From Amphiscolops sp. MND2022 (Eukaryota), in the NCBI GenBank assembly GCA_964187785.1, contig OZ076409.1, positions 12,836,001 to 12,900,000 on the forward strand: DNA of 64,000 bases, read 5' to 3'. The notes under the pieces were generated by a model that saw only the letters and a program-made list of their open reading frames with translations, had not been told where the DNA came from and did no database searches. Made by a program: the position numbers and the translations under genes. Below, piece by piece: positions 18,279-55,407 of the stretch (position 1 is the stretch's first letter; the number at the start of each line of letters is the position of its first letter).

Positions 18279-18488
18279 TAAAATTTCTTGCCTTTTCTCC
18301 TGGATGATTTCTCTTCTCTCAACAATCATACAAATACCACTCTCCATCTTTGAAATTCTCTGGAATTGCAGTGAAATCTTTCTAGAATTTCTAGAAAATT
18401 TAGTCTGTGACTTTCTGAATTACATTATTAAATACATCATCGTTCGAAAATACAACAATCCACTCAAATACAACAAATTTTCTTCACT

Positions 18489-18712
18489 ACCGGTTTATCA
18501 CGTTTTCTAACACGTTGACACGGTTCTTCCTCCTGCTCTTCTTGCCACACCGGTTTATCACGTTTTCTAATACGTTGAAACGGTTTCATTTCAGACTGAT
18601 TTATCCATTGTGACACAGTTCTCTTTCTCTTCTCTTTCCAGACTGATTTATCCACAAGTGACACAGTTCTGTTCTCTATACTGATTTATCACAGCTAATC
18701 CGGAAGCTTGTT
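18489..18712 (+). repeat. Short imperfect repeats in the leader of element B
   Basis: ACCGGTTTATCACGTTTTCTAA.ACGTTGA twice with a 60-bp period; CAGACTGATTTATCCA...GTGACACAGTTCT twice plus a partial copy. Confidence 0.85.
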
Positions 18713-28200: not shown

Positions 28201-28381
28201 AAATACAGAAAGAAATATAAAATGAAAATTTGAAAGAAAGAAAGGAAGTTTGAAGCTTAATGTGAAATTGAATGAAAAATATTTCACAAGTGATAATGAA
28301 AAAAAGAAATCCTAATTGATATAAAATTATAACTAATTTACAAATTGAAACAAACTACCATAACACAAAGATTTCAAAATT

Positions 28382-29833: not shown

Positions 29834-29866
29834 CTATAGAACAATATTTTAACCAATGTTTTAACC

Positions 29867-32522: not shown

Positions 32523-32885
32523 CTTTCATTCAAACCCAAATTCTCACTCGGACCAGTCTCTCCTTTTCAACTCAACTGAAAAATTCACTTGCCTATCACA
32601 ACTCAACTCTCAAACAGAAGACTTCAACTGGATCTTCAGTCCATCTAAAAGACCGAAATTACAGACGTTTCTATTCCTGGAATAGATGCCACTGTGATTG
32701 TTGATGTTTTCAACCCACAATTGTTTCAGTTATTCTCATATTGTAAGTACAATTTAAACTTCAATTTTAACAAACAATTTAATGGATAGAAAAGACATAA
32801 CAAAAATTTTCCTTATTATTAGAAACAGTATAATCAAACGTTATAATCATTATTTTAGCTCTACAAAAACACGCAAGTTTAAATA

Positions 32886-34178
32886 ATGGAATCCTTGCCC
32901 GAAATTGATGTAGTTAATTCTAACCCCTCTGAATTGCTTGCATCCCCTTTGAATATAACTATTCAACAAAATGTTAACGAAGATAATAACTCATCTTCAG
33001 ACTCTCAAGATCCCATGGAAACTATTCCTATTGAACAAGTAGATCATGTTAACGCAAGATCTCAAAAAAGAAAGTACCCAGATATAACTGCAGAAAAACC
33101 TTTTATGGAATCTGGCGCTTGCCCTCCTTTCATAAAACCAGTTAAACAAGATGAAGATAGAGATTGTGAAATAGTTCCTATTCTCTCATCAAAACAATTT
33201 ACCTTCCAATCTCAGTTAACCTCGTTATATATGATTCCAACAAAATACAAATTCATCATCAGAGAACTTAAAAATGATTATCATACTTCAATCGCTTCAA
33301 AATTGATCACCCCATATGATTGGTGGTTAAACAAAAAAGTGAAAATTTTCTCACTCCAATACAATTTCCTCAGACCATCTCCATATGATCTTCGAACCGA
33401 AAAAAATGATGCAAATTTTTTGCCATACCAAATCAAAAAAGCTCATCACATGACTTATCAGAAGTTTCTTCAATACAAAGAGCCCGATAATTATATATTC
33501 TTCAATTCCAAGTATACGTCGCCATTTACTTTCAACTCAGAATATTTGATAGATTATACCAAAAAAAGAGGAAAACTTAGAAATTACGATCCGCTTAAAC
33601 AAAGTTTTCTTTTCCTTCTAAATGATAACCCAAAAAGACAAATCATTGTACCACAAGAATACCTCATTCTGAACGACGATTCGTTATTACAAGAAGATAT
33701 ACCTCAAAATATATCTGAGCCTTTTCCTCCACTTCAACATATAGCCTCTCAACCTCTGGGAGACTGTGAATAATCTTATTTTTACGCAATGACCAAAAAG
33801 GGGTATTCAAATAATGAATTAATTTTCATTATTTTTCACCTGCTTTCACTTCTTACAAATGGAAATCATAAAAAACACAAAAAGACAAAACAAAAATCGC
33901 CAAAGAAAACCAAAAATGACATTCCTCAACCACAAAGTTTTCGCCCAACGGACGAATTACAGAAATATACAGAAATTCTGAACATCATAAAACCTTATCA
34001 TCACCCGAACCGAGATATTCTCATAACAATCGCCGAAATTGTAAATACTCTTGAACAAGCTCGACGCATAATACAAAATATCGTATTTGATACGACAAGA
34101 ATTAGCCAATCAGCTTTGTGTATTCGCACATCATTAGACGAATTCAACTACACAATTGAAAAAATGCACCGATCTTAA
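32886..34178 (+). pseudogene. Element B accessory ORF 1 (~430 aa, one in-frame stop at 33771-33773), function unknown
   Basis: ORFs 32886..33773 and 33789..34178 share a frame and are 15 nt apart; acidic N-terminus, basic KKHKKTKQKSPKK tract. Confidence 0.7.
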
Positions 34179-34701
34179 CTGGTAATTATGGGATAATCAC
34201 TTTAAATTGTTAACACTTATCACTTAATCTCTTAACAACCTGTCAAAATTAATTGAGTCTACACGCATATGCCTGCTATGCATGATTATATTACACGCTT
34301 GATATTAAAATACTCTTTTAAAATAAAATAATACAAAAATTTTCAATCGCGACATGAAAATTTTTAACAAAATTCCTCAATTGCTCCTCCTTTTAATGGA
34401 CCGATTTCAACAAATAAGAACTTATATGAAACATTTTTAAATACCCTTCAAAAGATTTCCAAAATACATCAACTTAATTCTTAAAATTAAAAAGTTATAA
34501 CATCACAAATTACATCAAAAAAATGTCAACTACGAAATTCTATTTTCAAAGGAAACTTTATTGTAAACAAACTAATCTATTTTAGGTGAATATCGTCACA
34601 ACTGCTTCGTCAGCATTCCTTCCTCCTCTCAAGCCGTCCATCCAATCAGAAATCCAACGTATCTTCTACAACTTTCAACAAATTTCATCATATTCTTCAA
34701 T

Positions 34702-35178
34702 ATGACGACACTTCATTCTGGTGACACAGACTGCCCGATAGCTCCTCTTCTTTCAATTCCTTCAGCTCGATTGCGATCCTTGATTCTGAAAAAGCATTTA
34801 ACAACATTAAATGCGCAGCTCAAAACAGATAAAAAGGCAGACCCTCATCTTACAAGAATGATATTGCTCAATATGTTCCAAATATTCCAAATTACACGAA
34901 AAAACTTTGACCAATATCTTCAAATTCATAAACATCCTGATACATATTCAACTCAACGAGACGCCACTGCCCAAACAGAGCATACTACCATCAAGCCCAA
35001 ACTTTTAGTACGAAACTTATCTAACAGAATACGTTCTGAAATGGAAAAACAACGTCTAAATTTCTATTGGCCTTCAGACAATCACGACGATACTGATGAA
35101 GAACTTCAAAAAGACCCTCCAGAAGCACTTCTAGATGATAATTACCCATACAAAACAAATACCTACGTCTCTTTCTGA
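34702..35178 (+). CDS. Element B accessory ORF 2 (158 aa or more), function unknown
   Basis: Sense ORF inside the element; preceded by a CTAAT...TTTTAG acceptor-like site near 34586. Confidence 0.5.
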   Translation: MTTLHSGDTDCPIAPLLSIPSARLRSLILKKHLTTLNAQLKTDKKADPHLTRMILLNMFQIFQITRKNFDQYLQIHKHPDTYSTQRDATAQTEHTTIKPKLLVRNLSNRIRSEMEKQRLNFYWPSDNHDDTDEELQKDPPEALLDDNYPYKTNTYVSF

Positions 35179-36216
35179 TATCAACAGATGACATCAACAG
35201 CACTCGTCCACCCCCATCTTCGAATCCAACATCTACAACGATTGATCGTCACAGCTCAGCACCCGTTCTTCACAACGTCATCGCCGCCCAACAGCTGACC
35301 CATCTTCTTCCATCTTCCAATCTTCAATCTTCAGCCATCCAATTCTCAGCCGAAGATGATTGATAATCAATAATAAAGGAAACTCAAAGAAAAAACATTG
35401 TCCATGAGAATATTTAAAAAGATTCAAACTCATCTAATATTTAAAAAGATTCAAACTCATACCGAAAACATTCGCAATGTATTTATCATTTCAAATGTAA
35501 TCCCCACCCATATTTATTTGCCCTTAAAGTCTTTTAATCCACACCCGTACCGATATTTATTTGCTTTATTTTTAAAGAATAATTAATAGTTATTATTTTT
35601 CAGTGCTATCCTATCCAAAATTAACATATGTTAACAACAAATCTTTTCAAAATTCAACAAAACAAGTTCAAAAATAGATCAAGCACATTGTTCAAATCAG
35701 ATTCGAATAATGACAGACCCAAATTCTCAAAGTTTTCAACACTTGTTACATAACAAACCCGCCAAAGTTAATCACAACCTGATATCTTTTCAGACAGTTT
35801 TCACACTCGATAAAAAAATCTTACCAACAAAAATTTTTCAATGACTCTTTGACCTTTAACTCGTATGATGTTTGCTCACGTTTGTTCAATGCGAAGTTCA
35901 TTCAAAGACTTCAACAGAGGCATAAAATTGAGCATCTACCAGTTCAAAAAACAAGCCGACGAAAGCATAGTGAAAAAACACTTTGACGCTTTTTGAACTG
36001 TAGTCGCACCTACGAGGTGTCAATCAAAATTTTGACAATTCGAGGTACACCAATGAGTCGAACTTACACCACTCTTAAAGAGACTTTTGCCAATCATCCA
36101 TCAAATGAAAAATGTTAACTAGCTGAAACGCTAAGAACATTTAAACAACATTTTTTTCTCCATTTTAATTACCGATGCTATTTTAAAATTTTATTTTATT
36201 TAAAAACCGGGATGGA

Positions 36217-36348: not shown

Positions 36349-38241
36349 GGATGCATTTTGCATGGTAGCTAAAATACGAGGAGTGAATCACCTTGATCAT
36401 TGGGGTGCCCAAAATCTTTCAAAGATCTGAGAAGCTCATTCGTGACTTCTAACGGTTTCCTGAGACCCTTTCAGATGCAACGTTCCTTGAGTACTGAGAT
36501 TAGATCGAGTGAAGCTGACTTGTACGATGCTTCCTTTGTTGGCGTTTCTATTGGTCAAAAAGCTCAAACCGAAAGCGTAAGTGGCGTTCTTGGCAGCTAT
36601 ACTAATCGAGCTAATCAACTCGACAGTCTCTTTTCAAGCATGAGTGCAGATAAAAAGTCTTTCATTCAACTTGTTAAAGAGTCTGCAGACACATTGAAGA
36701 GATAAAAAACAGTTTCAGATCAGTGCATGCGTTATCCACATTTGTCATGTTTACCACCAGCATTTTCGGTAAAGAACTGCTAGGATCCCTCCATTCTAAT
36801 CCCCTTGTCTAGTATTCTACTAGAGCAGTTACTCTACCAGTTGCAATGCATTTGCGTAAATTCAACTCATAGCAATAACTAAGTATCACTGTTTGCTTCG
36901 ATGATTATCTAGTTCTTTTGTTTTTCTGTTGAAAACATCAGCTTCAGCATCACGAAGCTACCCTTCATCAAATATTGTGTTTACCATCATGTCTAATGTT
37001 TTTGCTTTACGCGTATATGCTCCACTTCGAAATATGCTTTTTTTGTTGTAGGTCCATTTTTCCGCAGCGGACTTGTCATCCATTGAACCAACGAGTTATG
37101 TTTTTCGTACTTTTTTGTAATAGCTCAAAACTAATACGCCACAAAAGACGAATTCAAGTAGTTCCAAATACGCCCACGACAGGATCACGCCAGTGAGCTA
37201 CACAAGATCTACTGATCATTGTTTAGAATCAGTTCAGACGATTTTTTCAGTATGTATAAACAGCCGTTCCATATGCGAATATCGTTCTGGGAGAGGTCAG
37301 AAACTGGAGAAATACCTCAGATAAGCTCTAAAGAACTAGTTTCCAGCAACGCTTCTATATGAAACTGCAAATACCATTGTGAGATAAAGTTATATTGTTG
37401 GCAGGGACGCGAAATCGAATGCTTAACTACGACGACATCAATTGTGATTGATCGCAGGACTTCGAAGTTTCGAGGCAATCTAATTTTTCAGCGAACAATA
37501 TCTGGTATTTGTTCCTTGTTTTTTATCAACATTGACGCAGAATGGCTTGTATCAAGACCAATGTAAACGTTAAACTTGTGCTTGGTGAACTTCTCATTGA
37601 TCTTGTGTGCGAAATCTCTGCGTTTGTTCTTTGACGTAAAAAAAAAGAGGATAATAGGACTGCAGTTGTGGATTTCGCAACATTTCGTGTTTCTCTCTGG
37701 GGAAGTTTGTCGAGTGAGCGCTTCAAAAATTTGCATCTTAATATAGACCATCAATTTAGTATTGAGTGCTCACAAACTGTGAAAAGCTCAAAAAAAGCGT
37801 GTCTTAAAAATTGGTAAATTTCCTAATTGGCCGATTTCTTCTGTCAAAATAATGATGTAAAATCCTGTTCTGGAACGTTAGTTTCGGTGTCAGTAAGGAG
37901 CAGTAATTGTACGATAGCGTCTTATGAAGTGCTCTAATTTTGTTAATTTTTGAAGTACGAACCTCAAAACCCGAAAATGAAACTGCATATGTCTTCGAGG
38001 TTTGATAATTGAAAAGTCACGAAACTTGTTTGTCGTACAGACAATAAACAACTTACAAAAAACAATTAACTCATCTTTTAAGATCAGGAAGCCAATTTGG
38101 ACTGAGCAAGCAATACTGACAAAAATGTACTAAACATACGAGATATTCATCAAAATATTTGGTCAACGAAATAATGGAAGGTTGTTAGGCAGCCCAGAAG
38201 CGCATAGCTTTATTGAAAAACAAAAAAAATATATTTAAAAC

Positions 38242-40629
38242 TGTTACGAATTACGCTATGATTTTCGTTTTGGGTAGAATTAATTCACACTGTTTTCGTC
38301 GGAGTATAGAAGCTTCTTGTTTCATTTTCTAGTTCTTCCGATACATGGTCTTTTACATTTTCTCTCGTTTCAGATCTCAAGAGTTTCAACATTTCCTTTT
38401 GGGACTCGAGCAAAAGAGTCTTAATCTCAGACGTTATCTCTTCCTTCAGAGAGGACCTTATGCTTTCCAAGAAACTATTTTCTACTCTGGGGACTTAGAC
38501 CTCGAAGGACCTGCTAATTCTACGTTTTGATCTAAAGGATGAGAATTTTCTGTGTTTATTGGCGAAACAAAGCCTTCACTTACATTATCATCAACTTCTC
38601 GCTGGATATTCTTTCTCTTTTGGCTTCGTGTTGTAGACATGTTGTTGAAGAAAGATTTATTCTTGAAGAATTCAATTTTTTCTTTCTGATTTTCAACAAA
38701 GTTAGAAGAATGAGAATAGTTTGAGAACAACAAGTTTGGGACAACTAGGTTGTAGCACTGGTAAAAGACTGAGTCCCTTCGAAAAGTTTGCACTTCCTAT
38801 ATATACCCTCCTAGCATCATCTGATCACGTACATATTTCCAAATTTTTTAAAATATTAGTCATTTCCTGTTTTTTCGGTGAAAAAATCATCAAAATCCCA
38901 AAAGTGCGTCGACATTTCGTCAGTTTTTAAGACACGGCAATTTTAATTTAGCGTTAGTCATCAAACATGATCATATCATTTCATCCGGGCGTCCTTTTGC
39001 TTCCTCCCAAGCAGGAAGTAGATATTACTTCAGTCTGTCAAATCGGAAATGCTTCCCTGTTTTACTGCTTTGGTTCGCGGGAAATTGACGCTAAGATGAC
39101 GCTGACGTGAACAACAAATACCTGATTTTGAAATTCAACTTGATCAAATGCTATGACTAATTCCAAAGTGTGATTATTTGAACGATGCTAAGATGATATT
39201 TTATGAATTTGGACTCACTCTTTCGCTGAAATTAGAATTAAGAATCATGGTATCAAAATAATACTCCATTAGCAAATTTATCATGTCGCGACAAGTGCGA
39301 CAAGTTTTACAAAATTAACAGCAACGTTTGTTAAGTAGCAACGATAATGCAATGCATTTAATGGATAGCAACGATGAATTAGTATGGAAAATATGATTAC
39401 GATCATAAGTATAGCGTTCAATATCAGATGGTACAAAATGCCAAGTATATGAAAATACATTTTCAATACAAAATATACTTTAGTTGAAAGTATAAACTGT
39501 GACTTTCTGATCATTTTACTATGAACTCCCATAGAGGAAAAAATGGGTTGAGTAAGGGAAATCCCTTGTTGTTGAGAAGTGCAAGACGATTAGTTAACGT
39601 AGATTTAAATCAACCTATATGTGTCAAAATCTACCTTAAGTTATTACCTTAAGTTATAGGAATACCTCCTCTATGCTTATCTTACGAATTGAGATAGCTA
39701 GCATGCATTCCCTTTTAACATAATAACGACTTTATTGCGATGAAACCTTGACTGATCTTGCAAATTTATCCATTTTGTTCAATTTCATAAACTTGGCAGC
39801 GTCATGTTGACGAGTTTTCTTGACAGAACTTTGAGCTTTATAAACTTGTCAACGTCATGTTGACGAGTTTTCTTGGCAGAATAGAGATTTGACTAGTTTG
39901 ACGCAATGCTGACGAGTATTTTAGAAATGAGTCTCTCGCTAGCTGCCGGAGCAGTGACGTCACAGTGGCGGTAAATTGGAATGATTTTTGGTAATGCTAT
40001 TAGTATAGGCGGATAATTGGAATGATTTTCTGGTACGCTTATGCGAGGCAGTGACGTCAATTGGTATACCTTCAAACTTGTCTGCGTCTTACTGACGACA
40101 AATATACATATATTCTTATTTTTTCCGCTGCTTTGTTTGCTCAGCGCAATATTGACGTCCTAAACCACACTAATTGCTGTTCAAAGAGTAATTAAGCTGC
40201 CTTTCTTAGAAAAGGCTTAGTTTCTTCGGCGTGCCATCTCAGTGTATTTTCTATTTTAGATCTGATTGATGTTTTTTAGGGGAATGATTTCGACTACGTT
40301 TTTGTTTAGATTAGGCTATGATTTCTTTGTTTTAGAACGTAATTTAATTTAGCTTTCAGGTGGCGAATGTTGCTATTTTGACGTGACAAAAACGTTTCAA
40401 CCGGAAATGTAAGAATCATTTCAAAGCGCTCATTCATTGTAACTAGTTTCATTTGAAATTTCCGTTGATCAGACGTTCAATTTGTTTTTTGTTTTCCTAG
40501 TCACAGTTTATTTGTTAGTTTTAATAGTTAAAGTAAGTTTTTTCGAACCTCGCGGTGCAGCTGGGGCCTCTCCCGAAGCCAATTCTTAAACATCCACAGC
40601 ACAGCCCAGTCCGGGAGCTGACTGTGACA
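38242..40629 (-). repeat. 3' LTR of element C (2388 bp)
   Basis: Direct repeat of 51952-54327. Confidence 0.97.
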
Positions 40630-41272
40630 GGGCCACTGTCATAGGTTTTATCGTCCTCCCAGGGAACCTCGGCTGGTAGAAAGGGTATTGCAGCTCGTAG
40701 ACATTAGGGTCAATTGCTTGGTTCCTGGATGGGGGCATTATCGCCGGGCCTCTTTCTTTATCTAGATCGTTTAGCGATTCTTTCTTCTGTTCTCCCCAAA
40801 CTTTCAGAGGTCCGCGGGGGGATTCAAAATAGGAACATGCATCATCCTCCGTTGCCTGTCTTATGAATTCAGCGACTTTACTGCTAGTCATGGAGGACAT
40901 TTCTTCTTCACAAGGTTTCTCTACTACGAACACGTCTGAGTTCAGCGAGGGATCAGGGCTTTCTGGCGAGTCCGCAATTTCTTCTTCGTTTTCCGACTGA
41001 GGGTACTGTCCCGATTCAACTGTTTCAAAACTCGTGTAAGATTCACTGAGCTTCATCCTCTTACACTCGGTTTCCAGTGAATTTAAGGAGAGGTCTAGAA
41101 ATTCTTCTTCATCTGCTGTGGCTTCCGCTGACGAGTTTAATATTTCCACTATCAGTTTTGGGTATTTCTTGTTATTTTCTGGCAGTGGGGTAGAGGATCT
41201 TGTGATTTCTCCTTCTTCTTCACTCGACGATGAAATGTCAATTAGTTCATATATGTCCATTAAATTGCTCAT
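40586..41272 (-). CDS. Element C acidic Ser/Glu-rich accessory ORF (228 aa from ATG 41272), ending inside the 3' LTR
   Basis: Uninterrupted ORF; ELIDISSSSEEE motif; low complexity. Confidence 0.65.
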   Translation of the reverse strand: MSNLMDIYELIDISSSSEEEGEITRSSTPLPENNKKYPKLIVEILNSSAEATADEEEFLDLSLNSLETECKRMKLSESYTSFETVESGQYPQSENEEEIADSPESPDPSLNSDVFVVEKPCEEEMSSMTSSKVAEFIRQATEDDACSYFESPRGPLKVWGEQKKESLNDLDKERGPAIMPPSRNQAIDPNVYELQYPFYQPRFPGRTIKPMTVALSQSAPGLGCAVDV

Positions 41273-41379
41273 CTTCTTTATTTGGCTTTTCTTCGACTGT
41301 TGACCGTATTTTAATTGTTCCACAATGAATTTCAGCTTTAATTTGGATTAAGGAGAATATTGGAAAATTCCCTCCATTC

Positions 41380-41700
41380 TGATTGGCTGTTCAAATATTT
41401 TAATCTTTTTAATCTTCAGATGTTGACGTTATGTCGACATTGCATTTTTATTGGCTGTAAATTGAAATAACTTAGTTAGCAAAACTTGTCAACGTTATGC
41501 TGACGTCATTTTGTTAGCTTGGCTAACTTTTTGATTTTGTCACCGTTTTGATGACGTCATTTTAGGTAATAGGATTAATTTCTTAACCCTGATAACCTTT
41601 TTGTTGACGTTATGCCGACGTCAATGTCGTTGGTAATTAGCCAACTTTCATTTTTGTCACCGTTATGGTGACGTCAGTTTGGTTGTTGTTTTCATCATTT
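41380..41700. promoter_or_regulatory. Candidate internal bidirectional promoter of element C
   Basis: Lies between two divergent ORFs; ATTGG (CCAAT) boxes near 41382 and 41450; TGACGTCA at 41501, 41552 and 41669; repeated GTCAMC-N5-GNTGAC palindromes. Confidence 0.55.
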
Positions 41701-41725
41701 CTCTTTTCCAGATTGCCTTTGAAAG

Positions 41726-44700
41726 ATGTCTTCCTCGCGCCGTGTTTCTGGTTTCCAGAGCGGTCACGATACCCAATTCGTCTTCTCGGAAGGAGAAGTT
41801 CGAGACAGTGAAGCCGATGCCCCTGCTTTGCAGCTTGCTGCTGGTGAGTTTTCATCCCTCCATCCATTAAGCTTTTGTGAATAATATTCTCTACAGATAG
41901 GCTTTTTCTGTTTTATATTTTCACAGCTTAGATTTTCTGACGCGTCGTTATGGGATGTTTCTTTGTTGTTAGATCCAACGTTCTCTTCTCCTTTGGCTGG
42001 GGCTTCTGTCTCCCATCTCGAAACCTCCCTTCCTGCTGATCTTTCTGGAATTTCAATTGAACCCATTGCTGAGTCTACTCATCGCGTTGGCGATTCTTCT
42101 GTCACTGTTGGCGCTGCAAATGCTCCCAATCCATCTCCAGCTTGTTCTGATTCAGATGTTCCTCTGGCTGCTGTTGCTAGAAGTGTTAATCCTTCTGGGA
42201 CAGTTGCCACTCGCGGAGGTGAGGGGTCTCCCCCTACCCAAGAGAATGTTGTCGGGAGTCAGAAAACTGTTTCGCCTCGGTTTTCATCCTTCTTGCACAA
42301 ATTGCAGACGACGGACGATGATGATGATCGCCTCACGGGGTCTAAGCATGGTGAGTTGATTCGATTATGTATGCACTTGACTGTATGGGTCTTTGTGGTT
42401 GGGGGGTTTTTTTGTTGTTGTTGGGTGTTGGAGTTGTATTTGCTGTTTTAGTGCGGTTGGTGGTTCCTGACAAGGGTGGTTCCGGAGTTCAGTCGACGTC
42501 AAGGTAATGTGTTTCACTGGTACCTGTTGTTGCCCCTCCAGTCGTTCGTTTCTCCTTCGCTGACAGTGGGGAGGAGGATGCAGAACCTGGCTCATCGCAA
42601 CGAGTGAGCAATCAGCGTCCATCGATGGATGTTGATAACGTGTCAGTGGACCCCTTTGTTGCCCGTAAGTGAAAACCATTGTGTTTGGTGTTTGTCTTGG
42701 GATTTGCATATGAGATAGATAGGTCTTTCTTTTCGTTTTGAGAATCAGTTGCTTGTTTTTCGGTTGTTCTCCTTTTTGCCTTGTCATTCTTTAAAATAGT
42801 TAGGGATAGTCATGTTATGTTGGTGAATTTATTGTAGGTTTTGAAGAGCTGCTCAGTCGTATGGAGTCGACTCTCGAGGTCGCTGAGCGGGGTCGCAAGC
42901 GCGTTTATAGTCCTCGCAATCGTCTTCGTCGGGATATGGTTACTGGGAATCCTAAATACGAGCTCTTCGTCAGTGGTTCCAGTACTGGTTCCGACAAGCT
43001 GTTCCATTGCATGATATGTCAACGAGACGTTTCAATGGAATCGCGGGGTGCCGCCGAGTTCAGCAGGCATTTCTTCGGGAAACGACATTGGCAGCTTGAT
43101 GTTACGTATCGAGTTCAGAACGGTTTGCCAGTGTATAATCGCCTGATGGACCCGATGACTTTGAGTGAGGTAGAATTGGAGGAATATCGTAGTCGGCCCA
43201 GCAAGGGGAAAAACGAGGGTTTCAGTTTTCCTGAAGACCTGCTTCCTGCCTGTGCCCAAATAAACTCAAGTGTGCCCTTGATGTCGATGATTAACTGCCT
43301 CATTGAGTTGTTGCGATTTGGAGGAAGCTACCTTCTGTTGCGGAAGTTGTGGGGGTGCTTTCGAGCGACACTTGGGCCTGACAGTCCCTTATACAACCTA
43401 TATTGGAGTCGTCCTGAGTCTCTGGTGAGTACTGCATTTCTTCGTCTTTTAGTGTGTTGAACATTCAGGTTATGAGTGGGAAGTTTGGAAGTTTGATTGT
43501 CGTTTTTGGGTATTTGTGTTGGACGTGTGGTGAACGTCGGGTGTTGTATTTTAGTTGTTGATTTTCCAAGCTCTGTTTCCGCGTGTGTTACGTTCCCTGA
43601 TGTCCCGGATCGCCGCTTTTCGGGAATACAGCATGTTCTTCATCGAGAGTGGTGAAGATCATAATTGCCTCGTCCAAACCTGGGATGATCATACGTTAAT
43701 GAGTGTCTGTGTGCGAGTCGAATCAGTGGGGCAGCGTGTTCCTGAGGCTGAGTTGGCCGGATTGTCACGTGTCATTGACGGTACTTCCTCTTGTCAGATG
43801 CCCTTGTGCTGTCAGGGGTGTAGTCCGACGCTGTTGCGTATGCTGAGTGACAATCGAGTGGACGGACGTGAGTTCGTCGTGTACCGTGAGTTCAGTGAAG
43901 GAGGTGTTCTTGCACTGTTATGAGCTGGCCCATCAGGAAGTGTTTGGTGGTTTGGACACTACTGCCATGATTGACTTCCTCATGCTCCGATTACGTGGGG
44001 CTGTGCAAGAGCCGTGGTGCGAAGGTGTACCTTGTCTTCGCCGATGCATTGTCGCTGGACGTGTTGCGTTCGCAGACTTGCGTGATGTCGTCACTGATTT
44101 GATTGCTGTTTGGGCATCTGTGCAGGATTTCGTCAAACATACTGTCCCTCGTCATTTTAAAACCGGAGCTGGCAGGGTAATTCATATTTGTTTGATTTTC
44201 TTTTGTTGTTTTGTTGTTTTCCTTCTCTCTCTCTCTCTCTTTTGTGTTGTCATCGTTTGTGTTGCTAAGTTGATATATGATGAATTGCATTCTTATTTGC
44301 AGATGTGTGGCACTGACTGGCATATCTATTCGGAGATTACGAGTGAGTTGCGACTTGGACTTCTCCTGCACGTCCTCGATCTTTGTGAGTACAGTTTCTT
44401 GATATTTGGACTTTACCGGCAGAGTGTAGTTGTATGTTGTTTATTGGGTGGTAGTGTTAAAGGAATCCGTCAGTCTTGTGTCAGGTATGATTTAGGTATT
44501 GTGTTTTAGATCATTGCACCTTTAAGAAACAGTTGTCGTGTCGAGCTGACTACGCCTTTCATGCCAATGTGGAAATTTGTCAGTTCGTGCACTGCCCGTT
44601 ATCACGTAGTCGCAAGATTGGTTCTCTTCCAAGTTTGAATTCGTCGGAGGAGTACATGGACCCGCAGAAGCTTGATGGTTTTGAGTGAATTGATTCCGTC

Positions 44701-45759
44701 GATTTCCTCAGAAGCCATGACTTTGGTGCTGTTCTGCGACGTCACAAGGGTGGTGAGGGCCGTGCGTTTCGGGATCAGTGCCTCAAATTCGTCGATCGCT
44801 TTGTTTGTGTCATACTGCGACAGCAGCCTGTGACAGGAGATTTCTCTCAAGGAGTTTATGCATTTTGCCCTGAGCTTTTGTTGGAGGGAGACGACCATCA
44901 CATGACGGACTTGTTTCGTAAGCTTGTCCGAGTATTGGAGCGGTGTGGTGTTGTGTCGTCGTTGGAATCAAAGTCTGCTGTGGAAGAGTACGCTTCGTTT
45001 GTTGTTGTTGTGGATGCTCGGGCACGACACGCTGGTTCCAACAGCTGTGCCGAGGCTATCGACGACGTTCGTCAGTATTTGCTGGACGATTACGGATTCT
45101 TAGCTCGCAAGTCGTTGTGTCGGGTGTTCAAGTTGTGCTGCCTTGTCGTCCTGAAGCCACGGGTTGACTTCCCTGCAGTTGACATTGGCCTCAGTGATTG
45201 TAGAGTGCCTGAACGTGTGGTTGCAACGTGTATTCGAGGAGTGCAGAGCAGCGTTATGTCTCCCGGGTTTAAGCTGGGATCATTTTTTACAAAGTTCACT
45301 ATGGGCGAGGTTCGCAAATCAATCGCTGCTGCTAGTTCCTTCATGACTGCTGCTGATTTCAATCCGTGGGAAGGTATATGTGGTGAGAATCAATCTGCCT
45401 TTGTTGACCGTTATAGAGATGTGTTCAAGAAACAGGTCAGTCGCAAGAGAGGTGGTGTCATTGGGCAGTCCCTTGGTGTGGGAACATCTAGTCGTGATGC
45501 TGCGGCTGTTGATGGCGAAGGGTGTTTTTCTCAGTGTGAGAGTCTGACTGCTTCCACCGTTTCTGCCCCAGCTGATTCTGCCACTAGTACTTGTAGTCTG
45601 TTTGGTTTGAGTAAGGTGCAAGTACATCAGAGCATAGCTTCCTTACTTGGTCGAAAGAGAGATGCTGAAGAGGTTGGTGAGTCATCGTCAAAGAAGGATA
45701 AGAAAAGGTCTAGACAGTCAGTTGTTAAAGATGATGAGTCCCGTTCGAAGAAAAAGTGA
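41726..45759 (+). pseudogene. Antisense 7-exon cargo gene of element C (~1,080 aa), zinc-finger protein resembling an inactive hAT transposase
   Basis: Exons 41726-41843, 41973-42350, 42452-42664, 42838-43424, 43555-44176, 44303-44384, 44510-45759; all six introns GT-AG and phase-matched. Lesions: TAA 42505, frameshift ~43900, TGA 44686. Confidence 0.82.
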
Positions 45760-45962
45760 GCTTTGTCGTCTTGGATTTCCAAACTTTTGTAGCGTAGTTT
45801 ATATTATTTATTTGTTTCTGTATTTGTATAGTGGACTGTGTATATTATTAGAAGAAAACCGGACGTATAGAGTTCGGCTGGAGTCATTCACTTTGTAGTA
45901 TGTCTATAATTGAAAATCGTCAAATCGGTTCGATTTGGACTCCAGATATTATCTTTTCCTTC

Positions 45963-48900
45963 TTAGAGAGTCGTAGTTATAGCGTCGAGTCGTCTGAAAT
46001 CAGGGTTAGCGTTAGGTTTAGGATTAGGTCTCAAATTGTACTTTGCTGTTTTTCGCGGGTTATATCCGACAACTGTAGGCGGTGATCTTGGGGGAATAGG
46101 TGGACTTTCAAGGGGTGGGGGGCGGCGTATGTATGGGTTATCCCCCACGTCTGTAGTAAGATTTGAAAAATCCGGAGACGGTGGCGCCTCGTCATTTATG
46201 TCATCGGTTTGGTTTCTTGGCATTTGAGACGTCGTGGCTTCGTCATTCGTATTTGTCACTTCTTGTATTTTTGCGTGTTGGTTGTTTTCTGTACTTTTTC
46301 ATGTTTTGTGTTCATCAATCTGTTTTCCGAAATCCATTTCCCACGATACCGCGTACCACTCGTTGTGTGACACTTTGACGTCTGGATCGGGAAGATATTC
46401 GTTTGCTCGTACTGTGACGTCAGGCACGCGTTGCTCTGGCACGTAAGGTCGTGTGCGAATTCTGTGTAATGTTTGTGTATATCGTGTGCCAATTTTTTGT
46501 ATCGTGTAATTATTATTTGAGAGCACTTCGATTACTATGTACGGTCCCGTCCAGATACAATCTTGAAACGCAAACTTTGTCGATTGATTGTCGGCTTTCG
46601 GATTGAGGATGTAGCAATAATCATTTAGTTTGAGCGGAGCTGCCGACGCTTTACGGTCATAATACTTTTTGTATTTGAGGTAAGACAGCATGATGTTGTC
46701 TTTCGCTGTCGCTCGCACTTCATCGATTTGTTGTTGTAGCTGCTCTGTTATATCTGAATTTGGCGTAGTTTTCCACTTTGGCTTGATGCCTAGTTTTAAA
46801 TCGAGGACGCTGTAGGGTATACGTCCGTGGAATACTGTAGATGGTTCGCAGCCTAGGGTTTCATGATACGTTGTATTATAGTTCATGACTGCGATCTGAA
46901 CGTATTTGTGCCACATTGATCGTCTTTCACCCGTCGATATTTTTAGTGCAGTTTTGATTGAAGCGTGTGTCCTTTCTAGGATGCCAATCGTTTGTGCATG
47001 TTTCGTGGATGCATGGCTAATTTGGATTTCGAGTATGTGCATTATTTCTGCGACGACTTCTGATCTGAATTGAGAGCCTTTATCTGACAAAATTAAAGTT
47101 GGCAGATATGCGTGTCTGGTCATGACGTCGACAATGCATCGTCCAATTGCTGTGACGTTCTGTGTTGGGTATGCGAATAGATATGGGTATGCGAATAGAT
47201 AGCGTGAAAATACATCAATCATCGTAACAATGTTTTGGTATCCTGCAGATTTGGGTAGATTCGGTAATATGTCAATCTCGAGAATGTCTTCCGGGCCCAG
47301 GACATGTTCTGTGTTGTTGATCATCTTTGGTCTGATTTGGCTGTTGCTGATTCGTTTGTATTTGATGCAGTCTTCACATTGCATTACCCATTGTCTAATT
47401 CTTTTTGCTAAGCTAGGGTAGTAATACTTTGATCGACATTCTTGGATCCTTTTTGTGATCCCTGGGTGTTTTCCCATTTGTCCATGGATTGCTTTCAGGA
47501 GTTCTGTAATCAAATGCTCAGGGATTAGTATTTGGTTGTGTGTGACTTGACCGCATTCTCCGTAGTATTTGCGCATTAGTACTCCATCTTTGACTATGAG
47601 TCTGTTTTCGTGGACTAAGAGGCGTTTGGCTTTCGGATCTGTTTGTAGTAGGTGTTTGTCGTATTCTTCGCAGATCAGTTTTCTCTTGATTGCTTTGAAA
47701 ACTAAGTCTGCGTCTTGTTCAACTCTAATGCGTGCGTCTTCCTTGATTGCCCCAAAGGTGTATGATGCCTTGTTTTTTGGGATTGGAGTTGTTTCTTTTA
47801 TTGACAGCTTTATTTTCGTCGTCTTCTCATCTCGTGCATTTTGTATTGCTTGTTCCGTTTGTAGAAGAATTTCCTCTTCTGTTTCAATCGTTTCCTCTGG
47901 GAGAAAAAAGAGTTGTTCTTCATCTGCGACGTCTGTCGATTGAAGGTTTACCTGTATTGGTTGGATCGTAATATCGTTTCGGATTTTTAGTTCAACTTTT
48001 TCCTTGGGGTTAAGGTCAATTCGCGACAAGAAGTCGGCAGCAGTGTTTTGCGTTCCTGCTACGTGCATGATGTGAAAATTGAACTGTAGTACGTAGTCAC
48101 ATGCGTTCCATAGTGTGGGGGGAATTGCTTTTGTTTGAAAAAACCTGGTTACTGATCTATTGTCGGTCATTATGAGGGTTGGTAGGGTTGTTTCCCACAA
48201 TATGTGGCTATATTCTAAAAATGCGTGGTAGATTGCCAGAAATTCTTTGCACTAAATTGACATCTTCAGTTGCGCAGGTGAAAATACTTTTGATCCAAAT
48301 GCAACAGGCGCAAAAGTTTTCTTTTTGGAGTTGAGTTTTTTGTCGTTTTCTTCTTCGATCATTAGCGCATAACCTGAGGCGCGAAAACTAGCATCCGTCA
48401 TTAGGACGTATTGTCGTCCTGTGATTGGTTGTTTGAGGGCTAGTCCACATGCTTCCGCTAGTGCTGCGTTGATCGCTTTGTAGTGATCTAGCAGTTCTTC
48501 TGTGACTTTGATTTGTTTGTCAGCTTTCAGTAGTTCGTAGAAACCAAGTAGCTTTTCTGACAACCGCGGGATATAGTTGCGGTAGTAGTTGACAAAGCCT
48601 ATGTATCTCTGTACTTGTTGCTTTGATTTCGGGAATCGTACATTTGCTAAGAATTTCTGGATTTTGTGGTCTTGGGGGCGATTCCTTGTGGGGTGATCGT
48701 TCTTCCAAGGAATTCGACCTCGGTTACTCCAAAATGGCATTTGTCGATGGATAGTTTGAGTCCTGCTTGTCTAATGCACTCGAAGACAGCTCGGATGTTT
48801 CGTATCAGTTGCGTCACGGAGTTAGCGGCTATTCCAATGTCGTCCACATACTGCGCGCATTGGTCAGCCTTGATTACTTTGTCCAAATATTCTCTCATGA

Positions 48901-50912
48901 AACTAGAGAATGCTGACAATGCTCTGCTCAGTCCTTGTGCCAGGCGTTTATATGCAAACGTTCTGCTTGCGAAGTTGAATGCCAGCATTTCGATTGATCT
49001 CTGGTCAGCCATTTGCAGACAGTGATATGCTTGAGAGCAATCTAATTTACAGAATAACCTTTTCCCAGCTAGGTGTTGAGCTGCGTCTGACAGGGTGCTG
49101 ACTGGGTGGTTGTTGTTGATGTAATCGTCCGATATCAGTGCGTTGATTTTTCGCAGGTCGACCAGTAAACGTAGTTTACCGTTTGGTTTGCGTTGTGCGA
49201 AAATCGGGCTGGCATATTTTGAAAATGGTAATGTCGTGATTATACCATACCTATGCATTAGTGCCAAGTTCGACTGTTAGGTCTTCCTTGAGGTTGATTG
49301 GCACTGGCAGGCTCTGTGTGTATATGGGTCGTTCGTCTTTTGGCGTCAGTTTCACTTTGAAGCTATTATTGATACCATGGTCGAGTCTGTGACGCACAAA
49401 GATGTCGCTGTATTCAACTATCGTTTGCTCCAGCTGTTTCTTGTCGTTTCCCTCAATCTGTGATCCTTCCCAGTTGAACATGTCAAGGAAGTCTTTCCTT
49501 GATTCTGGATCTTTGGTGGGATCAAGTTGTTCTTTTTTTATGAATTCTCTGATTTCTTTTAATATTCGCCTTTGTATTGGCGTGTGTTCATCTTCATTTC
49601 CCGGGTTTTCGGGTGTTGGGAACCAGAGGTTTTCGTCATTTTGTTCATTGTTTGTGGATTTCATGAGCTCATTTACATACATGAGGGTGTCATCTGGATC
49701 TTGTAAGGTGGTCAGCGTTGCGACGTCTACAGGTCGTATTTGTTTGGTGTCCTCTGGCCTCAGGATTTGTAATTCTGCCAATTTGGTGTGGTTTTTTATG
49801 GTGTGCGGGAAATCTGTCAACTTGGCTATTCGGAGGTTGATTCGTTTGTTGTGAGCTGTGGCTAGTGCTGGTGCAACGATGATGGTGGCTGTTTCATCAA
49901 ACTGTGGTAGCGGTTGTACTGCCCCTGTGATGTCGATTGCATTGGTGGTTATGACTATTGCATTAACGGTTGTTGTTTGTTGTGGCGGCAACGTCTGGTG
50001 CCCTTCAGCCATGATTTGGAGCGGTTTGGGGTTACGGTTTTTCTTTTCATCTGTCATGGCTAATGTCATTTCGACATGGGGGAAGGTGATGGTTCCATTG
50101 GCTGTATCTATCACTGCTTGGTGGTTTCTCATGAAGTTCAGTCCGATTATGGGGAATGACGTCTTTGATAGTATGACAAAGGTGTCGGTGAACGTGTATG
50201 TTCCGATATTGAATTGAATGTCTGCAGTGGCAATTGGTTGCTCTAGTTGTGCGTTCGCACATTCGATCTTGAAAGGGGGTTGTGGATACTCCTTTATGAC
50301 ACAATTATCGCTGTTCATTTTGATGGCGTTGTAATCGGACCATGACATGGCATTGATGAACCCTCCTGAGTCGACAAGGCCGTCCATTGTTAATTCGCCA
50401 AATTCCAGTGGCAAGTAAAGCATTCGTCTTCTGTTCTTGAGGACTATTGTTGAGTGGAGTGGTATATAAGTGTTACCGTCTTTTTCAGTTACATATTCTT
50501 TATTTGAGTTGAGGAAGGTGGGGAAGTTTTCGTGGAAGATAGGTGACCCGGTGGAGTCGTGTTTATCTTTCTCGGACATTTGCGACGAAGTGCAGGCGTC
50601 GTGGACGTTTTCAACTGGGTTTCCTTGGGTCTGAGCAGCGGGTTCTTTAGTGGTGATGATTGGTTGAGAGGATGTTTTTTGGTGATGTTGGCAATCGTTT
50701 CTGTAATCCTGATTGTTTGGAGGTGTTACCTTTTGATCCTCTTGTGGCGGGCGTCGTTTCATAGATGCGATTGCTTGTTGTCTCAGCCATGCTTCTGATG
50801 GGGTGCCTGAGCACTCTACAGTCGTGTCGTTGGTATACGTTGTTGGGGGTTCTTGTGGAGAATATGCCCTCGCGTCTACTGTTTCCCCAAAGCGCAGGCG
50901 CGGCGTAATTAG
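45963..50912 (-). pseudogene. pol: Element C pol (PR-RT-RH-IN), disrupted by frameshifts (~49262, ~48672, ~46300) and a stop (48252)
   Basis: LVDSG protease; YASPIF..RK..GKLRLLVDLR and YVDD RT; TDAS RNase H; H..GKHPG...CEDC, DIL/SDKG/ERTH integrase; WTGPY. Confidence 0.95.
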
Positions 50913-52351
50913 TTTTTTGATTCATCATCGGGTTGGTTTGTTGAGTGTGTGACGGAGGTGTCCCTTTTACTTTCTTGTGTGTTGTGACGCTTAGGTCGTG
51001 GGTCGTTGGCAGTATTGGCTCCGTTCCAACAATCCTCTGTTTTGTGGGGTTTGCCGCAGGTATCGCATCTGGGTGGTTTGCCTGCACTGTGGTTGGTTGG
51101 TCCGTTGTTTCTTCGGGTTTGCATCCATTTGTCTCTTTTCATTTTACGACATTCAGCTTTATGATGTCCAAATTTGTTACAATAGAAGCAGTACCCTTTT
51201 TTAGTAGTTTGAGCGGTAGTTTCCACTGATTTAGGTTCAGTTTTTGTTTGGGCAGGTTCAATTTTGTTTAAGGGCACTAACGTTACCTCGTCTGGCGCTC
51301 CTAGTCCATTGAGACGCATTTCCCTTTCCAGGTGAAGTACTATGTCGTTATAGGGTTTGTCTTCGAGGTATGCGCGGTTTAGTATTTTCTTGACGTGGTC
51401 TGGCATTTTGGCGTATATAGCCTTGTCTATGAATTGCTGTGCCTCTGTTCCAAAAGCTTCTTTTGCAGTTCTTTTTAGTACATCCAGGAATTCGTGGAGT
51501 TTTTGTGTCGAGGGGTCAAATTTTAGTGCGTCCCATTCGCATCTAGCCTTTGCCATCGACAGGTAGTCCCCAAATCGTCGTTTGAATATCGTTATATACT
51601 CGTCTAGTGAGTCTTTCTTCGAGTCTTCAATGTTGCAAAAGGCTTGTAAGGCGTCTCCCCGGAGTAGGGAGTGGAAGTAGTTTATCTTTTGTATTTCCGT
51701 AAGCTGCGGATACATTTTGATATTATTCCAAAAGAGATCTTCAAAGAGCTCAAATTTTTCGGATTTCCCGTCAAAAGTTGGGAGTGACGCCGTTAGAGCT
51801 TTTGGCATGGGTAGCATCGTGGTGTTATTTTGGTCTGGGGCGAACAAGGTTCGCGTTATTGCTGGGCGTTCTTTTGACGAGGGTTGGCTTTGAGATCGAA
51901 TCTTCGTTCTCTTGGGTTGATTGGTGGAGTCGTTTAAAACTCCTGTCACCATGTTACGAATTACGCTATGATCTTCGTTTTGGGTAGAATTAATTCACAC
52001 TGTTTTCGTCGGAGTATAGAAGCTTCTTGTTTCATTTTCTAGTTCTTCCGATACATGGTCTTTTACATTTTCTCTCGTTTCAGATCTCAAGAGTTTCAAC
52101 ATTTCCTTTTGGGACTCGAGCAAAAGAGTCTTAATCTCAGACGTTATCTCTTCCTTCAGAGAGGACCTTATGCTTTCCAAGAAACTATTTTCTACTCTGG
52201 GGGACTTAGACCTCGAAGGACCTGCTAATTCTACGTTTTGATCTAAAGGATGAGAATTTTCTGTGTTTATTGGCGAAACAAAGCCTTCACTTACATTATC
52301 ATCAACTTCTCGCTGGATATTCTTTCTCTTTTGGCTTCGTGTTGTAGACAT
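50909..52351 (-). CDS. gag: Element C gag: LTR-encoded N-terminal part (52351-51998), in-frame TGA at 51995-51997, then an intact 347-aa ORF from ATG 51952
   Basis: TFDGKSEKFELFEDLF core; knuckles CFYCNKFGHHKAEC and CDTCGKPHKTEDC; the upstream LTR ORF is in frame across 14 sense codons. Confidence 0.9.
51940..51951 (-). promoter_or_regulatory. Primer binding site TGGTGACAGGAG of element C
   Basis: Immediately follows the 5' LTR; identical to the element A PBS. Confidence 0.85.
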
Positions 52352-54327
52352 GTTGTTGAAGAAAGATTTATTCTTGAAGAATTCAATTTTTTCTTTCTGA
52401 TTTTCAACAAAGTTAGAAGAATGAGAATAGTTTGAGAACAACAAGTTTGGCACAACTAGGTTGTAGCACTGTAAAAGACTGAGTCCCTTAGAAAAATTTG
52501 CACTTACTATATATACCCTCCTAGCATCATCTGATCACGTACATATTTCCAAATTCTTTAAAATGATTATTCATTTCCTGTTTTTTCGGTGAAAAAATCA
52601 TCAAAATCCCAAAAGTGCGTCGACATTTCGTCAGTTTTTAAGACACGGCAATTTTAATTTAGCGTTAGTCATCAAACATGATCATATCATTTCATCCCGG
52701 CGTCCTTTTGCTTCCTCCCAAGCAGGAAGTAGATATTACTTCAGTCTGTCAAACCGGAAAAGCTTCCCTGTTTTACTGCTTTGGTTCGCGGGAAATTGAC
52801 GCTAAGATGACGCTGACGTGAACAACAAATACCTGATTTTGAAATTCAACTTGATCAAATGCTATGACTAATTCCAAAGTGTGATTATTTGAACGATGCT
52901 AAGATGATATTTTATGAATTTGGACTCACTCTTTCGCTGAAATTAGAATTAAGAATCATGGTATCAAAATAATACTCCATTAGCAAATTTATCATGTCGC
53001 GACAAGTGCGACAAGTTTTACAAAATTAACAGCAACGTTTGTTAAGTAGCAACGATAAAGCAATGCATTTAATGGATAGCAACGAGGAATTAGTATGGAA
53101 AATATGATTACGATCATAAGTATAGCGTTCAATATCATATGGTACAAAATGCGAAGTATATGAAAATACATTTTCAATACAAAATATACTTTAGTTGAAA
53201 GTATAAACTGTGACTTTCTGATCATTTTACTATGAACTCCCATAGAGGAAAAAATGGGTTAAGTAAGGGAAATCCCTTGTTGTTGAGAAGTGCAAGACGA
53301 TTAGTTAACGTAGATTTAAATCAACTTATATGTGTCAAAATCTACCTTAAGTTATTACCTTAAGTTATAGGAATACCTCCTCTATGCTTATCTTGCGAAT
53401 TGAGATAGCTTGCATTCATTCCCTTTTAACATAATAACGACTTTATTGCGATGAAACCTTGACTGATCTTGCAAATTCATCCATTTTGTTCAATTTCATA
53501 AACTTGGCAGCGTCATGTTGACGAGTTTTCTTGACAGAACTTTGAGCTTTATAAACTTGTCAACGTCATGTTGACGAGTTTTCTTGGCTGAATAGAGATT
53601 TGACTAGTTTGACGCAATGCTGACGAGTATTTTAGAAATGAGTCTCTCGCTAGCTGTCGGAGCAGTGACGTCACAGTGGCGGTAAATTGGAATGATTTTT
53701 GGTAATGCTATTAGTATAGGCGGATATTTGGAATGATTTTCTGGTACGCTTATGCGATGCAGTGACGTCAATTGGTATACCTTCAAACTTGTCTGCGTCT
53801 TACTGACGACAAATATACATGTATTCTTATTTTCTCCGCTGCTTTGTTTACTCAGCGTAATATTGACGTCATAAGCCACACTAATTGCTGTTCGAAGCGC
53901 AATTAAGCTGTCTTTCTAAGGAAAGGCTTAAATCATTCGGTGTGTCATCTCGGTGTATTTTCTATTTTAGATCTGATTGATGTTCTTTTGGGGAATGATT
54001 TTGACTACGTTGTTGTTTAGATTAGGCTATGATTTCTTTGTTTTAGAACGTAATTTAATTTAGTTTTCAGGTGGCGAATGTTGCTATTTTGACGGGACAA
54101 AAACGTTTCAACCGGAAATGTAAGAATCATTTCAACGCGCTCATTCATTGTAATTAGTTTCATTTGAAATTTCCGTTGATCAGACGTATTTTTGTTTTCC
54201 TAGTCACAGTTTATTTGTTAGTTTTAATAGTTAAAGTAAGTTTTTTCGAACCTCGCGGTGCAGCCGTGGCCTCTCCCGAAGCCAATTCTTAAACATCCAC
54301 AGCCCAGTCCGGGAGCGGACTGTGACA
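51952..54327 (-). repeat. 5' LTR of element C (2376 bp), with TATA-like box (52508-52515) and AATAAA (52367-52372)
   Basis: Direct repeat of 38242-40629. Confidence 0.97.
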
Positions 54328-55407
54328 AAAACATTTTGGAATCAAAGAGAGTTTGAACAATATCTCCTAACGGTATCGGCAAAAGTTGCATGTCAAGATG
54401 CTCGAAGATGTTTATGACGCATCCATTTTTTTCTTTCTGACTCAAAACTAAGTTCCAATATTGTTTCATGGCAGTTCCATAGTTATTCTGGAAAATGCTT
54501 AGAAGTTTGATTTTCTGGGTCTCTGACAGAATGGTGTAGCTCTGCCCAAAATGTTCTTCAAGATTGTAACAACTTCTCGGATCCCAAATCGACCAACTTG
54601 TTCAAATCTTTTGTCCTCTTTGGGACTCGGCACCACTTCAAGTTGTAGTTAATGAAACTTTCATCGAGATTTACGTTCAAGCGCGTGACTTCAGTTGTCT
54701 CCACGATTTCACATGAAAAATTGGAACCTGGAGCAATGAGTTGTATGTCAGGGTCCGCGGACCTAATACAACAGCTGCTCAGTATTCAAAGGCGAATTCA
54801 AGTTTCAAGCCGTCTCTGGTTCGTACTGCTTGGACAAAACTCAGGAACAAGTCAGTTTCTTATAAAAAGACTTTGTGCAAGAATTTCAGTCGAATAACTC
54901 CCTCTTATTACTCTCAGCTGTTATTATTTTCATATTCTGTGTTCTCGATTCCTAGCGAACAATGCACTTTAGTGATATCAATTCTCTGCTCAAGTTGATG
55001 TCAGGTTCCTGTTCTCGAAATTTCTGAAGTAAAAAACTAAAATATTTAGTCATCGACCATTTTCTCGCTCAAGCATCAACTTTTGCTCAGGTCGTGATAA
55101 GTATGAAACATGAATTTTTCAGTCAACTATTCTTTGCCCGAACATGACTCAACATTTTGTTTGACGACCGCACAATTAGAGAAATTGAACTATTCTTGCA
55201 GCAGATAAGGTAAGCTAATTTACAGATATGTTGATTTTTTTTTTGATGTGATCAACAGTCAAGAAAGACCTCTAATCACTAATCTTGACACTAACAACGA
55301 TAAATTGCAAATTACTAAGAAACAACGCATGGTATCGACACTCCACAAAGGTCGGTATGTGGCGCTAGATGTTTGGTCACATACAGCAAGTCCACGATGG
55401 TCCATCA

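Follow-up and report, generated by a model that had tools for sequence, protein, structure and literature searches.

A candidate spliced antisense gene with six introns in a Ty3/gypsy retrotransposon family of Amphiscolops sp.

Antisense extra genes carried by retrotransposons with long terminal repeats (LTRs) have been described mainly in plants and in one fungal family, and none of them has an established function. In the accessible text of PMC7264820, antisense additional open reading frames (aORFs) located between pol and the 3' LTR are reported for maize Grande, rice RIRE2, Silene Retand, Phaseolus PvRetro13 and fungal Boty; the aORF-3R genes are described there as present in most copies, conserved like the other proteins of their elements and of no established function, and the Grande gene is reported to have a promoter of its own and a product located in the nucleus. 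The accessible part of PMC11963269 adds that a TRP28 domain is encoded in 97% of Retand clusters, and the two sources, to the same extent, place antisense additional genes in plant Tat/Retand/Grande/RIRE2 and in fungal Boty. Here we describe a putative gene of this kind from Amphiscolops sp. MND2022 (assembly GCA_964187785.1). The DNA analysed, called the window throughout, is a stretch of 64,000 nucleotides (contig OZ076409.1, positions 12,836,001 to 12,900,000 of the forward strand). It contains a 16-kb Ty3/gypsy (Metaviridae) LTR retrotransposon on the minus strand and, inside this element but on the plus strand at 41726-45759, a series of open frames that six introns appear to separate.

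Like the plant aORF-3R genes (Grande gene23, RIRE2, Retand), the gene in the window is antisense to gag-pol and sits in the interval from pol to the 3' LTR, which is long in both cases, 5.7 kb here and 2.9-6.6 kb in Retand (accessible text of PMC7264820 and PMC11963269). It shares with them its presence in most copies and in related families, here in 10/10 sampled copies and in 31/31 convergent pairs of a sister lineage, and a conservation near that of the element's other proteins, with a ratio of nonsynonymous to synonymous substitution rates (dN/dS) of 0.04-0.14 as compared with 0.07-0.14 for gag-protease (gag-PR) and 0.03-0.10 for integrase. The plant genes have been suggested to use promoters of their own and to act as nuclear regulators; the counterpart of such a promoter here would be a candidate array of the palindrome TGACGTCA. 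Unlike in Retand, no Transposase_28 (PF04195)/TRP28 domain was detected by Pfam at E values up to 1-10 in the window pieces, the relatives or 83 alignment members. A second difference from the plant genes is the size of about 1,080 codons with six introns, the word 'intron' occurring 0 times in the accessible text of PMC7264820 and PMC11963269. Unlike for plant elements, the clusters that resemble the pol of this element are mostly metazoan, which is weak evidence.

The brtn gene, reportedly the antisense additional gene of Boty-like elements (the work of Zhao et al. in Virology in 2011), offers a fungal parallel. As in the Boty-like Ty3/gypsy elements of Botrytis cinerea, where brtn lies between pol and the 3' LTR (cited in the accessible text of PMC7264820 and PMC8365987), the gene occupies that same interval. 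It also resembles HBZ/APH-2 of the deltaretroviruses, which is an antisense protein gene at the 3' end of the element and is expressed only from integrated DNA (PMC11963269 and PMC7264820, accessible text). Unlike HBZ, the predicted product has no bZIP or other recognised Pfam domain and no sequence relationship to it was found; the candidate promoter is internal, though TGACGTCA palindromes also occur in the LTRs, and there are six introns as opposed to one. HBZ has a spliced isoform and carries a bZIP domain.

A sequence-only reading of the same DNA had singled out this gene as its best candidate for an undescribed system, which goes too far. Plants and fungi were already known to have antisense extra genes in the interval from pol to the 3' LTR, and deltaretroviruses an antisense gene; the protein family, its size, the six introns and the lineage-specific intron content are new as far as the literature searched goes. 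That literature, with most subscription journals outside it, gave no multi-intron antisense gene in an animal-type Ty3/gypsy clade, and a survey from 2026 that covers the third ORFs of metazoan Ty3/gypsy elements (PMC13524379) does not use the word 'antisense' in its accessible part.

The antisense gene and its copies

Sequence and three-frame translation give a plus-strand gene of seven exons, six introns and about 1,083 codons. Exon 1 (41726-41843) begins with the ATG at 41726 and ends in phase 1; it is followed by exon 2 (41973-42350), which encodes a low-complexity N-terminal region, exon 3 (42452-42664), exon 4 (42838-43424), exon 5 (43555-44176), exon 6 (44303-44384) and exon 7 with the stop codon (44510-45759). 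The donors are GTGAGT at 41844, 42351, 43425 and 44385, GTAAGT at 42665 and GTAATT at 44177; all six acceptors are of the T-rich (T/C)AG type, with their last bases at 41972, 42451, 42837, 43554, 44302 and 44509, and the intron phases are, in order, 1, 1, 1, 0, 0, 1. Positions and phases agree exactly with those that the sequence-only reading had listed, as does its estimate of about 1,080 codons interrupted by three lesions: an in-frame TAA at 42505-42507 in exon 3, a +1 frameshift within 43847-43920 in exon 5 and an in-frame TGA at 44686-44688 in exon 7. Alignment of the copies described below shows all three to be private to the window; the frameshift is so because exon 5 measures 622 nt here and 621 nt in 8/10 other copies, and all ten of these show one or more gap columns relative to the window in this exon. 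The window copy of the gene is a decayed one. An introner-like origin of the six introns was considered and rejected, their mutual similarity being limited to T-rich words of 7-14 nt.

The gene lies wholly between the two LTRs of the element (38242-40629 and 51952-54327), which are flanked on both sides by the target-site duplication GTTTT, and no inverted or direct terminal repeat was found around it in a repeat search of 40600-46400. Both observations are in line with the sequence-only reading, which had seen no terminal repeats or duplication belonging to the gene itself.

The 1.07-Gb assembly (1,929 contigs) was searched with exon 7 at the DNA level, and 41 matches were obtained, with 40 of 174 first-look candidates scored; among those listed, three are 97-98% identical and the remainder 68-77%. 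Ten of the 40 non-self matches (ranks 2-9, 11 and 15) were then compared with their full surroundings. All ten, 70-98% identical to the window, are collinear with it over the whole 16-kb element, that is LTR, antisense region, pol and LTR, which excludes a one-off nested insertion. The exons and introns behave differently in these copies. Comparison of the window with the seven diverged copies gives an identity of 66-81% for exons 4-7; gap columns number 0-3 in exon 6 and 1-5 in exon 5, and exon 4 has none in four of the copies. Introns 2-6, by contrast, are 47-66% identical and contain 2-110 gap columns. Exon lengths are also kept, at 587 nt for exon 4 in 7/11 copies, 621 nt for exon 5 in 8/11 and 82 nt for exon 6 in 10/11. 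The splice dinucleotides are canonical GT/AG at 127 of 132 sites (12 sites in each of 11 copies), and the five exceptions (AT twice, AA and GG once each, and a single GC donor) are each confined to one copy. Every sampled copy has at least one lesion on read-through. The positions of the lesions vary, and in several copies most or all of the exons, taken singly, are open.

Intron 1 (41844-41972) departs from the other introns, being 76-83% identical between subfamilies as compared with 47-66%, and a constraint at the DNA level appears to act within it.

Selection was estimated by the Nei-Gojobori method with our own script on alignment columns. For exons 4-7, seven of eight between-subfamily pairs (652-809 codons) gave a dN/dS of 0.04-0.14, and in the eighth the synonymous divergence (dS) was saturated. 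On the same columns, four of the five other reading frames gave values of at least 0.9; the codon-complementary frame gave 0.15-0.26, since its third positions are common to both frames. The N-terminal part is less constrained, with 0.40-0.58 for exons 2-3 in the eight between-subfamily pairs. Closely related copies show higher ratios (0.18-0.47), which is usual for insertions decaying after integration. In the same pairs integrase gave 0.03-0.10, gag-PR 0.07-0.14, reverse transcriptase (RT) 0.01-0.06 and RNase H 0.01-0.05, except for 0.28 in one near-identical pair. These values show that purifying selection on the antisense gene is as strong as on gag-PR and integrase. The sequence-only reading had proposed a stable accessory gene of the family; collinearity in all ten sampled copies, conserved splice sites, a dN/dS well below 1 and the continuous frame of the sister lineage described below support this view by comparison.

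The modules of the element differ in history. In one pair of copies, c4 (L043+L044) and c13 (L047+L048), dS rises from 0.011 in RNase H and 0.139 in integrase to 0.573 in gag-PR, 0.867 in RT and 2.0 in the antisense gene. A like pattern is seen in the intron-poor lineage of the next section, where integrase is 91-95% identical to the reference copy and the N-terminal half of the antisense protein 65-82%. We read this as probable recombination between subfamilies.

An intron-poor sister lineage and the predicted protein

Protein relatives among ENA records numbered 295 representatives for exon 7, 168 for exon 4 and 51 for exon 5, and most were of the size of a single exon. Those of exon 5 agree with the window up to the donor and diverge directly after it. 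None of 10 relative clusters that were looked up carried a name. One relative, P0125, is a continuous frame of 890 residues on a 4,009-bp contig and is collinear with exons 4, 5 and 7 of the window: exon 4 corresponds to its residues 31-250, exon 5 to 250-347 and 381 onwards, and exon 7 to 500-794, so that the junction of exons 4 and 5 falls on a single residue.

When the genome was searched with P0125, 51 matches were scored out of 11,115 first-look candidates. All 51 had E values below 1e-260 and consist of continuous frames of 862-918 codons, 28 of them without an internal stop. At one of the loci (L051+L052; G000:C3:52196001-52216000) an antisense frame of 910 codons is convergent with an open gag-pol frame of 1,828 codons. 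The gag-pol protein of this locus is 79.5% identical to that of the window in RT, 50% in integrase and 43% in gag-PR, and the antisense proteins of the two lineages are only 28-39% identical. When the 910-codon frame is compared with the window exons, exons 4 and 5 join at one residue, and exactly 50 residues separate anchors that lie 33 + 82 + 35 = 150 spliced nucleotides apart, so that this frame lacks introns 4, 5 and 6. Candidate splice sites lie upstream of it: a donor CAG|GTGGGT, and T-rich AG acceptors that immediately precede the residues homologous to the beginning of exon 4. The same locus, which includes 200 N, is bracketed by a 1.86-kb inverted repeat of 99.7% identity (oriented positions 584-2444 and 18140-20000).

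For this lineage, linkage was judged from the coordinates of 60 scored integrase hits (of 30,860 candidates) and 79 scored gene hits (of 9,237). A scored gene hit lies within 8 kb of 31 of the 60 integrase hits, and all 31 pairs are convergent, with a spacing of 1,411-1,554 bp in 30 and 2,717 bp in one. The other 29 integrase hits are uninformative, given the small fraction of candidates scored. In sum, this abundant sister lineage carries the same gene, convergent with pol, as a single frame of 860-920 codons that lacks introns 4-6.

The product would have about 1,080 residues: a weakly constrained N-terminus and a C2H2-like motif would be followed by a segment of mixed alpha/beta structure, a large domain made of helices and a disordered tail of basic character. 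The zinc-finger-like motif C-x2-C-x16-H-x5-H is encoded at 43008-43088 in exon 4; its ligands are kept in 111/113 (C), 113/117 (C), 108/120 (H) and 118/123 (H) of the aligned relatives, and it is present in both intron-poor homologues, P0125 and the 910-codon frame. Structures were modelled separately for exon 5 and exon 7. For a sibling copy of exon 7 (43 aligned sequences), AlphaFold2 gave a predicted local distance difference test score (pLDDT) of 71.1 and a predicted template modelling score (pTM) of 0.56, with a confident all-helical domain at residues ~10-210 and a disordered stretch over the last ~100 residues. The exon 5 model (pLDDT 59.9) shows, at low confidence, a helix, three strands and then helices. 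Lys, Arg and Ser are abundant in the C-terminal tail, which may contain a nuclear localisation signal.

Candidate promoter and interpretation

A promoter-like array of four copies of a 29-nt box occupies 41484-41680 on the plus strand, as defined by repeat search, shuffles and comparison of copies, and ends 46 nt 5' of the ATG. The palindrome TGACGTCA is exact in three of the four boxes (41501, 41552 and 41669). It occurs 13 times in the window as compared with 1.04 expected, a count that 0/100 shuffles reached. Nine of the ten other copies carry 2-5 occurrences in the 500 nt upstream of exon 1; the proximal occurrence is located at -55 to -57 in seven of those copies, and some of the arrays have a period of 115 nt. 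No TATA-like hexamer was found. The palindrome matches the cAMP-response-element consensus; such sites are also present in the LTR of HTLV-1 (human T-cell leukaemia virus type 1). Elsewhere in the window, TGACGTCA is found in the 3' LTR (39955 and 40052) and the 5' LTR (53666, 53763 and 53864) at a spacing of 97-101 nt, once between the stop of the antisense gene and the end of pol (46415), and twice in a related fragment (12867 and 12912).

Taking the comparisons together, the frames at 41726-45759 are a real protein-coding gene of this Ty3/gypsy family, inherited with the element and convergent with pol, with six introns whose splicing is suggested by the comparison. We consider it quite probable that the best explanation as a whole is a family-borne, spliced and selected antisense gene that encodes an accessory factor. 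The gene would be transcribed from integrated DNA by its own promoter, the conserved TGACGTCA array 5' of the ATG, and the six spliceosomal introns would be removed from the antisense transcript; retrotransposition cannot remove them because they lie opposite the genomic RNA strand. The product would be a nuclear nucleic-acid-binding accessory factor, made by integrated copies only, that might act in trans on the expression of the element itself or on its control by the host, after the model of the plant antisense aORFs, where such a role is proposed, and of deltaretroviral HBZ, where it is shown.

Several observations weigh against this view. Between subfamilies, exon 1 (56-59% nucleotide identity to the diverged subfamilies, where an indel shifts the start codon) is less conserved than intron 1 (76-83%), and the first exon or the start may be mis-drawn. 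Most single copies are broken, so that selection is read from comparisons between lineages, as is usual for transposons, and the ratios themselves are rough, with dS at 1-2.8 in many pairs and undefined in one. No AATAAA or ATTAAA was found on the plus strand in 45760-46700 downstream of the stop, and the poly(A) site, like the transcription start and the six junctions, is putative. Nuclear localisation, zinc binding and nucleic-acid binding are predictions. No Pfam family was found in five window pieces, 11 relatives and 40 + 43 alignment members at E values up to 1-10; sequence searches of the PDB gave no solved relative (best E 0.31 for the profile and 1.3 for P0125). With the exon 7 model, Foldseek returned 0 matches at E <=0.001 in the PDB (best E 0.27), and VIA-align gave no fold match (best Z 5.2, root-mean-square deviation 3.1, 93 aligned). 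A search of BFVD reached a best E of 0.037, which is not above background. The exon 5 model reached a best Z of 8.2 in VIA-align, to designed helical bundles, a generic match.

Alternatively, the gene could have been acquired long ago, either from the host or from a DNA transposon such as one with a hAT-like transposase and a BED-type finger, and now be carried as a passenger of no service to the retrotransposon. A language-model look-up of P0125 returned the hAT-derived families DUF4371, FAM200-ZBED5 RNase-like, DUF659 and Dimer_Tnp_hAT at 0.79-0.82, which are leads only. At its start the exon 5 model has the RNase H-like order of helix, three strands and helix, but at a pLDDT of 35-58; the C-x2-C...H-x5-H spacing, moreover, is one that we take to resemble BED or U1-type fingers. 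A passenger without function would hardly keep a dN/dS of 0.04-0.14 across subfamilies whose synonymous sites are saturated, nor a constant place and orientation in two lineages with antisense proteins 28-39% identical; no hAT domain was found among the Pfam-searched pieces, relatives and alignment members listed above, and no terminal inverted repeats flank 40600-46400. We regard this passenger explanation as unlikely, while an ancient capture may still have been the origin of the gene. It is less likely still that the antisense RNA itself matters, through double-stranded or small-RNA control of the element, with the open frames incidental to it. Antisense non-coding transcripts are documented for micropia, TART and IAP (accessible text of PMC7264820), but frame-specific purifying selection, kept exon lengths and phases and kept C/C/H/H residues are traits of a translated protein, and the introns diverge freely while the exons do not.

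That the frames arose by chance from skewed base composition opposite an A-rich retroelement, with splice sites as chance matches, is hardly credible. The plus strand at 40-52 kb is indeed G+T-rich (GC skew +0.15 to +0.20; AT skew -0.25 to -0.33 at 42-52 kb), and such a composition somewhat disfavours stop codons. However, four of five other frames have a dN/dS of at least 0.9 on the same columns, relatives in the databases, hundreds in all, can be aligned one exon at a time, the joins are bridged by a continuous homologue, and other retroelements of the window with a like skew have no such gene. The contrast between exons and introns, the splice sites, P0125, the dN/dS and the 910-codon frame refute this explanation.

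Beyond the accessory gene itself, a bolder and distinctly more doubtful idea is that an abundant Ty3/gypsy clade consists of 'complex' retrotransposons that depend on a trans-acting nuclear antisense protein of new fold, expressed only after integration. The gene module would also be recombining between pol backbones, in the pattern to be expected from an arms race with silencing by the host. Three 3'-proximal introns distinguish the two lineages, which implies either gain inside a retrotransposon gene or erasure through a reverse-transcribed spliced antisense mRNA; the latter, if true, would be genetic proof of splicing.

For an accessory gene of this kind the family offers a large, strongly constrained protein with hundreds of relatives and no recognisable family or fold, a conserved candidate promoter, and two sister lineages with different intron content in one genome. 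Because retrotransposition copies the other strand, the introns make a clean natural experiment, and they bear on the persistence, gain and loss of introns in mobile DNA. Should the protein prove to act in regulation or in counter-defence, 'complex' retroelements that have antisense regulators would occur far more widely than the deltaretroviruses. The case also matters for annotation, as gene finders will call thousands of copies orphan host genes unless the family is recognised.

The host element and its surroundings

The LTRs of the element, defined by direct-repeat comparison, measure 2,388 nt (3' LTR, 38242-40629) and 2,376 nt (5' LTR, 51952-54327), have TG...CA ends and are 97.07% identical, with 54 mismatches and 6 gaps in 2,390 columns. 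The 5-bp target-site duplication, GTTTT on the element strand, is found at 38237-38241 and 54328-54332, where the flanks of both LTRs match. A TGG-initiated 12-mer resembling a primer-binding site adjoins the 5' LTR at 51940-51951, and a purine-rich stretch lies ~20 nt ahead of the 3' LTR, both recognised by sequence. Between the LTRs, on the minus strand, are gag-pol remnants in five broken open frames (46299-51994), in which Pfam identifies RT (RVT_1, 48647-49276), RNase H (RT_RNaseH, 48252-48770) and integrase (Integrase_H2C2 and rve, 46299-48251), the order being that of Ty3/gypsy elements. The ten best named look-alike clusters of the integrase are all Integrase_H2C2/rve and mostly metazoan, again as weak evidence. 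From the end of pol at 46299 to the LTR edge at 40629, the 5.7-kb interval holds the antisense gene on the plus strand. In 40600-46400 Tandem Repeats Finder reported a sole repeat, of an 8-nt unit inside intron 5, and Rfam had zero matches in the window.

Other retroelements are present in the window. A fragment of a related element at 12556-15574 on the minus strand retains a gag that is 36% identical at the protein level over 311 residues, together with part of the integrase C-terminus, but no trace of the antisense gene. On the plus strand, 18000-36000 has a GC content of 31-34%, a strongly negative GC skew and open frames of up to 900 codons; its RT is only 23% identical to that of the element, so that one or more unrelated retroelements are present, and no homologue of the antisense gene was found in this region.

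The element itself carries one further frame, of 253 codons, acidic and Ser-rich, at 40586-41347 on the sense (minus) strand, between the upstream region of the antisense gene and the 3' LTR, into which it extends for 44 nt before ending. It has a tblastn match in 10/10 sampled copies, at 33-95% amino-acid identity, and may be a third sense ORF of the element.

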